From: Promethearchaeota archaeon
GTDB lineage: Archaea; Asgardarchaeota; Lokiarchaeia; Sigyniarchaeales; SOKP01
Assembly: GCA_048938855.1 (NCBI GenBank)
Contig: JBHLLT010000048.1
Location: forward strand, 1 to 14,650
Direction of reading: 5' to 3'
Length of the DNA: 14,650 nucleotides
The notes beneath the pieces were generated by a model that saw nothing but the letters and a program-made list of their open reading frames with translations, had not been told where the DNA came from and made no database searches. A program made the translations under genes and the position numbers. Of this stretch, positions 9,564-10,783 are shown in pieces. Every line of letters starts with the position of its first letter. Positions within the stretch are counted from its first letter, which is position 1.

Positions 9564-9941
9564 TTAAACCTTGGCTAACTGATCATACAATCCTGGTAAC
9601 ACATCTCTAAATGAGTCATCTGGTATCTTTTCAAGGATTTCAGCAGCAATAGTTTTTAAAATTTCTCGATACTTCCCTGGTTTCTCATCACGTCGAAGTA
9701 AAAGAGCAACAACATAGTTTTCAACTGAAATAAAATCTTGTCCAACTCCAGAGAAAAAGGAAACAACTTTATTATTCTTTAATGCAATGCTTGCAAAGCC
9801 AGGTTTAAGAGATTGATAACGATGGCTAGAATAAACTTGTGTAAGTAGATTATTAGTTATTTTTAACGTTTCTGGATAAAAACCTTCGTTGATTGGACCT
9901 ATCTCATTATCCCACCGAATTACAAGAATACCTACAGGCAT
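9564..9941 (-). CDS. Stand-alone longin/uDENN-like domain protein
   Basis: N-terminal ILVIRWDNEIGP-x5-YP resembles the (F/W)D-x-x-x-GP...YP hairpin of uDENN/longin domains (Afi1/NPR2/Avl9-like). Apparent beta-beta-alpha-beta-beta-beta-alpha-alpha pattern in 125 aa. Confidence 0.7.
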   Translation of the reverse strand: MPVGILVIRWDNEIGPINEGFYPETLKITNNLLTQVYSSHRYQSLKPGFASIALKNNKVVSFFSGVGQDFISVENYVVALLLRRDEKPGKYREILKTIAAEILEKIPDDSFRDVLPGLYDQLAKV

Positions 9942-10185
9942 GATATAATACCTTTAGATTAACCTATTATAAGATAATTATGAAATTGTATTTGTAGACT
10001 TTATAGAATACTACTTATGATATTAATTTAATATCTTACTTTTATTTATTTCTTATTGTTTTTATGTATATTCTATCCGACCATTAATACATATTCTATC
10101 CTAAACTCTCTTTTCCCTAAGAAAAAATTTAAATTAAAATTATAACTTTGATTTATTGTCACCCTTAAAAGCTTAGAATTACTGC

Positions 10186-10193
10186 TTTTAAAA
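10186..10193 (+). promoter_or_regulatory. Putative TATA box of the tRNA-Leu gene
   Basis: TTTTAAAA lies about 23-30 nt upstream of tRNA position 1 (10216). The AT-rich background limits specificity. Confidence 0.4.
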
Positions 10194-10239
10194 TGAAATG
10201 TCTTATTTTTTCAATGGAGGGGTTACCGAGCATGGTCAA

Positions 10240-10271
10240 AGCCATTTTACACCAAAATGGGTCAAGACTAT
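10240..10271 (+). other. tRNA intron 1 (32 nt, D-loop, position 21/22)
   Basis: BHB-like motif: central helix GGTC(10234-37)/GACT(10266-69), bulges AA|A and AT|A, internal hairpin CCATTTT/AAAATGG. Confidence 0.85.
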
Positions 10272-10299
10272 AGGTGCTGGACTTAAGATCCAGTGGCAA

Positions 10300-10327
10300 T
10301 TCATCTGCATTTAGCGGTAGAGCCAAT
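10300..10327 (+). other. tRNA intron 2 (28 nt, loop of the variable arm)
   Basis: BHB-like motif: central helix TGGC(10294-97)/GCCA(10322-25), bulges AA|T and AT|A, inner helix TC/GA. Confidence 0.82.
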
Positions 10328-10346
10328 AGGCCTTCGTGGGTTCGAA

Positions 10347-10378
10347 TCCTGCTCAATCATTTCGGTAGTAGTAGGAAG
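10347..10378 (+). other. tRNA intron 3 (32 nt, T-loop, best fit 59/60)
   Basis: Outer helix GGG/CCC, imperfect central helix TTCG/AGGA, bulges AA|T and AG|T. The exact boundary is ambiguous by a few nt because TCC is repeated at both junctions. Confidence 0.75.
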
Positions 10379-10471
10379 TCCCACCTCCTCCACATTTCAA
10401 ATAATATAATTAGAACTTTTTTAAAAAAAAATAATAATTGATTTTAGAATTACAGAAATAATTAAGATTAA

Positions 10472-10783
10472 TTATTCCATTTGTTTTTTCATTTTCATAA
10501 CTAAGGGAATCATTTTTGTTGCATCCATCGCAGGGGTGGTTCTCATAACTCTAATATATCCAGGTTTTGCTAGTCTCCAGATCATTGAACCTTTTGCCAA
10601 CTGTTCTTCATTATCAGCTTCTTCTATAGTAATTCCCCAATAATCTGAAGTGCTTATATAAAAGCCTATTTGATTTACTCCTTCAACAGGGTAAAGTTTT
10701 TTACTCATAAGCCTTTGAGCGATGTCAGCTAATTCTGAGGGATCAAAATCTGGATTTAATTCCCAATATGTAATAAATAGCAT
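10472..10783 (-). CDS. DUF3303-like small protein
   Basis: MLFITYWELN...YPVEGV...WGITIEEA...TTPAM pattern. Strong AAGGAGG Shine-Dalgarno upstream of the ATG (about 10792-10798, minus strand). Confidence 0.75.
   Translation of the reverse strand: MLFITYWELNPDFDPSELADIAQRLMSKKLYPVEGVNQIGFYISTSDYWGITIEEADNEEQLAKGSMIWRLAKPGYIRVMRTTPAMDATKMIPLVMKMKKQME

Follow-up and report, generated by a model that had tools for sequence, protein, structure and literature searches.

The plus-strand locus 10216-10392 of the window (the whole stretch of 14,650 nt that was analysed) is very probably a functional gene for tRNA-Leu(UAA), and probably the sole one of its genome, with three introns that would be spliced out by the endonuclease EndA, the exons then being joined by RtcB. 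The four exons (24 + 28 + 19 + 14 nt) add up to a mature RNA of 85 nt. The introns, of 32, 28 and 32 nt, account for 92 of the 177 nt of the locus (52%). The features of the locus are as follows.

10186-10193 (+): TATA-like box TTTTAAAA, 23-30 nt 5' of the tRNA start, a putative archaeal promoter
10216-10239 (+): exon 1, mature nt 1-24, with the acceptor 5' strand, U8-U9, the D-stem 5' strand and the D-loop
10240-10271 (+): intron 1 (32 nt), where D-loop and D-stem meet, about Sprinzl 21/22
10272-10299 (+): exon 2, mature nt 25-52, with the D-stem 3' strand, the anticodon arm and the variable-arm 5' strand
10284-10286 (+): anticodon UAA, within exon 2
10300-10327 (+): intron 2 (28 nt), interrupting the long variable arm in its loop, at mature nt 52/53
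10328-10346 (+): exon 3, mature nt 53-71, with the variable-arm 3' strand, the T-stem 5' strand and the T-loop UUCGAA
10347-10378 (+): intron 3 (32 nt), interrupting the T-loop at 59/60
10379-10392 (+): exon 4, with U60, the T-stem 3' strand, the acceptor 3' strand and the discriminator A73
10417-10422 (+): T6 run, 25 nt downstream of the tRNA, a possible archaeal oligo-T terminator

The locus had been described in an earlier note, made from the sequence, as a GC-richer island of 177 nt of which more than half is intron, and from which removal of 10240-10271, 10300-10327 and 10347-10378 leaves a well-formed tRNA-Leu of 85 nt. All three statements stand. GC content is 0.43-0.48 across the locus, compared to 0.12-0.30 in the flanks and 30.2% in the whole genome; the intron share is the one given above; and the coordinates proved exact, as judged by the ARAGORN call and the orthologue junctions described below.

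The spliced 85-mer was judged by ARAGORN, by inspection of conserved nucleotides and by covariation. ARAGORN, run without intron search, reports it as tRNA-Leu(taa), with a cloverleaf displaying a 7-bp acceptor stem (one G-U pair), U8, GG in the D-loop, and a variable stem GGC/GCC with a 4-nt loop. The anticodon loop CUUAAGA is uninterrupted, and the T-loop reads UUCGAAU. The features of a class II tRNA-Leu are all present (long variable arm, leucine anticodon, G37 and discriminator A73, which is nt 85), and the 3' CCA is not encoded at the locus.

Upstream, a block gcTTTTAAAA is kept in congeners at the matching distance, and T runs are found just past the 3' end in most orthologues. About 75 nt upstream of the tRNA (10126-10200) are kept across congeners and contain two TATA-like boxes (10165-10170 and 10186-10193); some relatives have only the first of these, which there lies at promoter distance. 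The idea of a shared tRNA promoter module was rejected, as the conserved upstream block occurs once in the genome. The tRNA is flanked on either side by a small minus-strand ORF, at 10472-10783 (-) and 9564-9941 (-); one of them encodes a 103-aa DUF3303 protein and the other a 125-aa protein without Pfam match.

The unspliced locus gives no ARAGORN call, with or without intron mode, and no Rfam match at gathering thresholds. At a loose threshold the Rfam tRNA model assigns 15.8 bits to it, against a cut-off of 29 bits, and the underlying assembly is wrong, in that the end of intron 1 is taken as acceptor and D arm and intron 2 as variable region. The expectation that general annotation would miss this gene was thus correct for the finders that were run, ARAGORN and Rfam. 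The inserts measure only 28-32 nt and show no Rfam intron matches, which speaks against self-splicing group I or group II introns. A split or permuted tRNA gene was rejected as well, the four exons being collinear on one strand within 177 nt.

The decisive evidence for the proposed junctions comes from related genomes. When 40 of these were searched at the DNA level, 19 of 24 congeneric species proved to carry the locus, the matches being interrupted where the junctions had been proposed. All three introns are present in two orthologues (L002, L003). Exons 3 and 4 abut, intron 3 being absent, in seven (L005, L006, L009, L010, L011, L015, L017), and exons 2 and 3 abut, intron 2 being absent, in five (L006, L009, L010, L014, L016); L006, L009 and L010 retain intron 1 alone. 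For introns 2 and 3, the spliced junctions are thus supplied by nature as contiguous DNA at the exact predicted bases, and this, together with the covariation described next, excludes chance.

A scan of a public genome collection for the exact anticodon-arm sequence contributed about 100 further loci, and the 85-mer was aligned to all loci by a spliced-alignment script of our own, which is a rough aligner. Of the 115 orthologous loci that the script spliced, 91 give a product that ARAGORN reads as tRNA-Leu(taa); the other products are mostly explained by cuts at contig ends or by mis-splicing by the aligner. In some relatives the script called 'introns' of more than 70 nt near the 3' end. Inspection by eye of one such case (L004) identified it as an artefact of a diverged acceptor strand; these calls were left out of the counts, and the remaining cases are suspected to be of the same kind. 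One locus, L024 (DATKTW010000129.1), lies in a metagenome-assembled genome (MAG) named Nanopelagicaceae bacterium and displays an Asgard-type tRNA-Leu(UAA) with a D-arm intron; this contig is probably a mis-binned archaeal one.

Among 51 distinct spliced orthologues, stems formed by different exons covary. In the acceptor stem, position 3:82 occurs as AT, CG or TA, and positions 5:80 and 7:78 both occur as GC or AT. In the T stem, 62:76 occurs as TA, GC or AT and 64:74 as AT or GC, while in the variable stem GC is replaced by CG or TA. Exon 1 is kept in all orthologues and covaries with exon 4. Stem covariation across exons implies that selection acts on the spliced product.

The splicing motifs were examined with a bulge-helix-bulge (BHB) geometry consisting of a 4-nt exon strand, two bulge nucleotides and then the cut, with the pairing strand and two bulge nucleotides forming the last six bases of the intron. 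Intron 1 displays the central helix GGUC/GACU with 4/4 bp (one G-U) and the 3-nt bulges AA↓A and AU↓A, and intron 2 the central helix UGGC/GCCA, likewise with 4/4 bp, and the 3-nt bulges AA↓U and AU↓A (the arrow marks the cut). The motif of intron 3 is weaker, UUCG/AGGA, with 3 bp and a G-A mismatch, and bulges AA↓U and AG↓U; here the 5-bp T stem stacks directly as outer helix, and the 3' bulge is well formed. Introns 1 and 2 do not conform to a strict hBHBh' structure, as a contiguous outer exon-exon helix is missing (h = 0-1 bp), and in this genome intron 1 has its inner helix displaced by 5 nt. Lacking one outer helix, both represent relaxed motifs that would need an enzyme of broad specificity. 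In this relaxed sense the claim of the earlier note, a BHB-like motif at each insert, is valid (4/4 bp for introns 1 and 2, 3/4 bp for intron 3).

The predicted minimum free energy (MFE) of the precursor is -58.6 kcal/mol (z = -2.71 versus shuffles). The MFE fold retains the acceptor stem, the anticodon arm and the T stem, with each intron forming a local hairpin. Forcing a single BHB costs 2.2 kcal/mol for intron 1, 1.8 for intron 2 and 5.3 for intron 3, where a 7-bp hairpin competes with the BHB as an alternative fold. With all three BHBs forced, a cloverleaf-like precursor including the D stem is obtained at 8.7 kcal/mol above the MFE.

The same gene and its upstream block occur together on contigs named Promethearchaeota or Promethearchaeia, i.e. 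the Loki-type Asgard phylum, which agrees with the earlier suspicion of an Asgard genome. Two ORFs with both EndA domains (PF01974) are present in this genome. The 197-aa protein (alpha) matches the catalytic chain of Aeropyrum pernix (3p1z_B, E = 4.5e-34); its active-site Tyr, His and Lys are intact (GADFVVY, GLEHS, SVRKK), and the lysine of its INKPR motif aligns to K44 (VEK44PR) of the A. pernix crenarchaeal-specific loop. This loop has been tied to the cleavage of non-canonical introns (PMC3241643, PMC5829648). The second protein, of 202 aa, is 34% identical to the first, with Ser in place of the catalytic His. RtcB is also encoded (567 bits).

An (alpha-beta)2 layout of EndA has been reported for Asgard archaea and linked to broad specificity (Kaneta 2018, PMC5829648). 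Judged from the protein sequences, EndA of this archaeon would be expected to have broad specificity: the loop lysine of the catalytic subunit and the His to Ser exchange of the paralogue match the layout that Kaneta (2018) ties to this property, in favour of the relaxed-specificity EndA predicted beforehand. The non-catalytic paralogue is located at G000 C34:19990-20238 (L022:1210-1818). It has its best match in the homotetramer enzyme of M. jannaschii (E = 3.5e-23), and no match to crenarchaeal beta chains in the PDB was obtained at E-values up to 0.01. The Asgard 'beta' subunit may hence not be orthologous to the crenarchaeal one.

These data are consistent with the following scheme. Transcription from the TATA-like promoter would give a precursor of 177 nt. 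EndA, probably as an (alpha-beta)2 heterotetramer of both paralogues, would cut within the 3-nt bulges of the three BHB or relaxed motifs, and RtcB would ligate the four exons into the 85-nt class II tRNA, which would be finished by end trimming and CCA addition. The analysis shows the gene structure, the junctions and motifs, their conservation and covariation, and that the enzymes are encoded; transcription, cleavage, ligation and the sequence of splicing steps are inferred.

The tRNA in question reads the commonest leucine codon of this organism, UUA contributing 49.4% of the leucine codons in 844 long ORFs. Leu(UAG) and Leu(CAG) are found by ARAGORN and Rfam, and no second tRNA-Leu(UAA) was detected by ARAGORN, by Rfam or by a DNA search with the locus (one match) in this 97%-complete assembly of 93 contigs. 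Five other hairpins in the genome resemble a UAA anticodon arm; they scored at background level and were dismissed. Hence, 10216-10392 is probably the genome's only tRNA-Leu(UAA) gene. The high usage of UUA and the failure to find another tRNA-Leu(UAA) make the gene probably indispensable, which argues against a pseudogene.

A decaying pseudogene that has accumulated three insertions and fallen out of use would account for the rejection of the locus by ARAGORN and Rfam, and for an insert content of more than half of its length. On the other hand, such a relic would not be expected to keep the universal tRNA nucleotides and stems all intact once spliced, nor to display covariation across exons in 51 distinct orthologues, splicing motifs on its inserts, and conservation, both inside the genus and outside it, of the locus, intron 1 and the upstream block, besides being the sole Leu(UAA) candidate where UUA makes up 49% of leucine codons. 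We regard this explanation as highly improbable. Still less credit is due to a chance resemblance, in which a tRNA-like sequence would have been carved out of a GC-rich intergenic stretch by free deletions. Three free deletions chosen by eye do offer many degrees of freedom. However, the 'deleted' versions exist as contiguous DNA in independent genomes, and these junctions together with the cross-exon covariation already refute the idea. The spliced-alignment score points the same way (152 for the locus against 38-39, maximum 68, for random genome windows and shuffles of the locus), in a comparison that is partly circular, as the reference is the locus's own product.

A slim chance, somewhat greater than that of the two preceding explanations, is given to the same gene with other junctions or another intron count, for instance with 22/23 or 23/24 as the site of intron 1, with intron 3 anywhere from 60/61 to 62/63, or with one insert remaining in the mature RNA. 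The sequence itself fixes the junction of intron 2 uniquely and leaves 3 possible placements for intron 1 (a slide of at most 2 nt) and 4 for intron 3 (at most 3 nt), all giving the same mature RNA; moreover, the BHB of intron 3 is imperfect. Yet only the placements of the earlier note bring the helix and its bulges into register, with 4/4 as opposed to 0-1/4 bp for intron 1 and 3/4 as opposed to 1-2/4 bp for intron 3. If any insert were retained, the arm or loop that holds it (D arm, variable arm or T loop) would be destroyed.

The locus is not the only tRNA gene of this genome that appears to be disrupted. Only 30 tRNAs score above the Rfam cut-off in the 97%-complete genome, and 16 of these are 98-112 nt long, consistent with about one insert each. 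At least 15 expected anticodons remain undetected by ARAGORN and Rfam. The postulated heavy load of tRNA introns is borne out by these figures (16 of 30 tRNAs over-length, at least 15 anticodons undetected) as a lower bound. ARAGORN further reports a tRNA-SeC(tca) at G000 C49:41348-41440 (33 bits with the Rfam tRNA model), which suggests that this archaeon uses selenocysteine.

Comparison of relatives suggests different histories for the introns. The D-arm intron is shared by 86 of the 89 distinct pre-tRNAs of orthologues, on contigs named Promethearchaeota, Thor-, Hod-, Hermod- and Odinarchaeota, and mostly forms a 4/4 helix against the invariant D-loop GGUC; it looks ancient and retained across several Asgard phyla. 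Its minimal form of 16 nt (L056, L116) consists of the strand of the central helix and a 3-bp hairpin, while forms of 47-66 nt in other lineages carry an additional hairpin. In all 18 distinct variable-loop introns, UGGC pairs 4/4 with an intron strand (GCCA in most), and their inner hairpins of 2-9 bp are unrelated in sequence. Many 59/60 introns in other genomes display UUCG/CGAA, with 4/4 bp, on the T stem.

The number of introns in this gene varies from 1 to 4 within one genus, with five positions occupied in eight combinations. Four introns are found in L018 and L053 (D arm, mature nt 46, mature nt 52 and T loop) and in L090 (D loop at nt 15, D arm, nt 52 and T loop), and the spliced products of these three loci are called Leu(taa) by ARAGORN. 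Between the locus in the window (L001) and its closest relatives (L002, L003), identity is 91-97% for intron 1 and 89-100% for intron 2. Intron 3, at the same 59/60 junction, is 44-53% identical, which is the level of shuffled sequence, and the type of intron 3 seen in the window recurs in the more distant congeners L004, L012 and L013. Such a pattern points to introns being replaced or exchanged at a single site, the 59/60 junction. In BLAST searches of the whole genome the three introns matched only themselves at meaningful E-values, without a sign of copying from another locus.

Unrelated introns at exactly 59/60 in close relatives that share an identical intron 2, together with five positions in eight combinations, led us to consider, tentatively and as a rather unlikely option, that the variable-loop and T-loop junctions are hot spots of recurrent insertion by a site-directed process. 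This might be, for example, reversed splicing by the endonuclease and ligase with subsequent copying into DNA, or recombination with spliced variants.

Several aspects of this gene have precedents in the literature. Kaneta (2018, PMC5829648) pointed out that the tRNA sets predicted for Asgard genomes were incomplete, and suspected that disrupted genes were hidden in them. Valentin-Alvarado (2024, PMC11291895) found introns in 92-95% of the tRNA genes of Atabeya- and Freyarchaeia, with several introns in more than half of those genes, often at non-canonical sites. A preprint covering 90 Asgard genomes (Goswami 2026, doi 10.64898/2026.10.13.758758) describes D-arm introns that are systematically missed, up to five introns per gene and repeated gains, the route of arrival not being established, and a load of about 0.9 introns per gene in Asgard families other than Atabeyarchaeia and Freyr-/Jordiarchaeia. 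With the multi-intron tRNAs of the latter two works, the gene described here shares short introns in the D arm, variable region and T arm that are missed by software, repeated gains with intron sets differing between relatives, and a background of permissive EndA. Those works centre on Atabeyarchaeia and Freyr-/Jordiarchaeia, whereas the present case concerns one gene in Promethearchaeota (Loki-type), and this tRNA-Leu(UAA) architecture was not found by name in the literature on Asgard multi-intron tRNAs. Kaneta (2018) likewise reports two EndA genes with an L1/CSL insert in the catalytic one, in a work without gene-level description; the tRNA-Leu(UAA) locus is one such hidden gene.

Thermoproteales and other Crenarchaeota (Sugahara 2008 and Marck & Grosjean 2003, cited in PMC11291895; Hirata 2011, PMC3241643) have in common with the present gene up to three introns per tRNA and relaxed BHB motifs. 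Dependence on an (alpha-beta)2 EndA with the crenarchaeal-specific loop is a further likeness, K44 of A. pernix corresponding to a lysine in alpha here. The differences are the phylum, the mesophile-type genome with 30% GC, and the second EndA subunit, which in the PDB search is closer to the homotetramer enzyme of M. jannaschii. Taken together, the three-intron tRNA-Leu(UAA) is a solid but ordinary example of a phenomenon already published for Asgard archaea, and it opens no new biological category. The fine-scale turnover of introns within the genus goes slightly beyond published work, within the literature considered here.

For this archaeon, the tRNA for the commonest leucine codon, missed by general tRNA finders in its genome, has been recovered. 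Annotations of Loki-type Asgard MAGs, and estimates of their tRNA complement and completeness, are biased in this way. The within-genus series constitutes a clean natural data set for the gain and loss of tRNA introns and for the substrate range of the Asgard splicing endonuclease.
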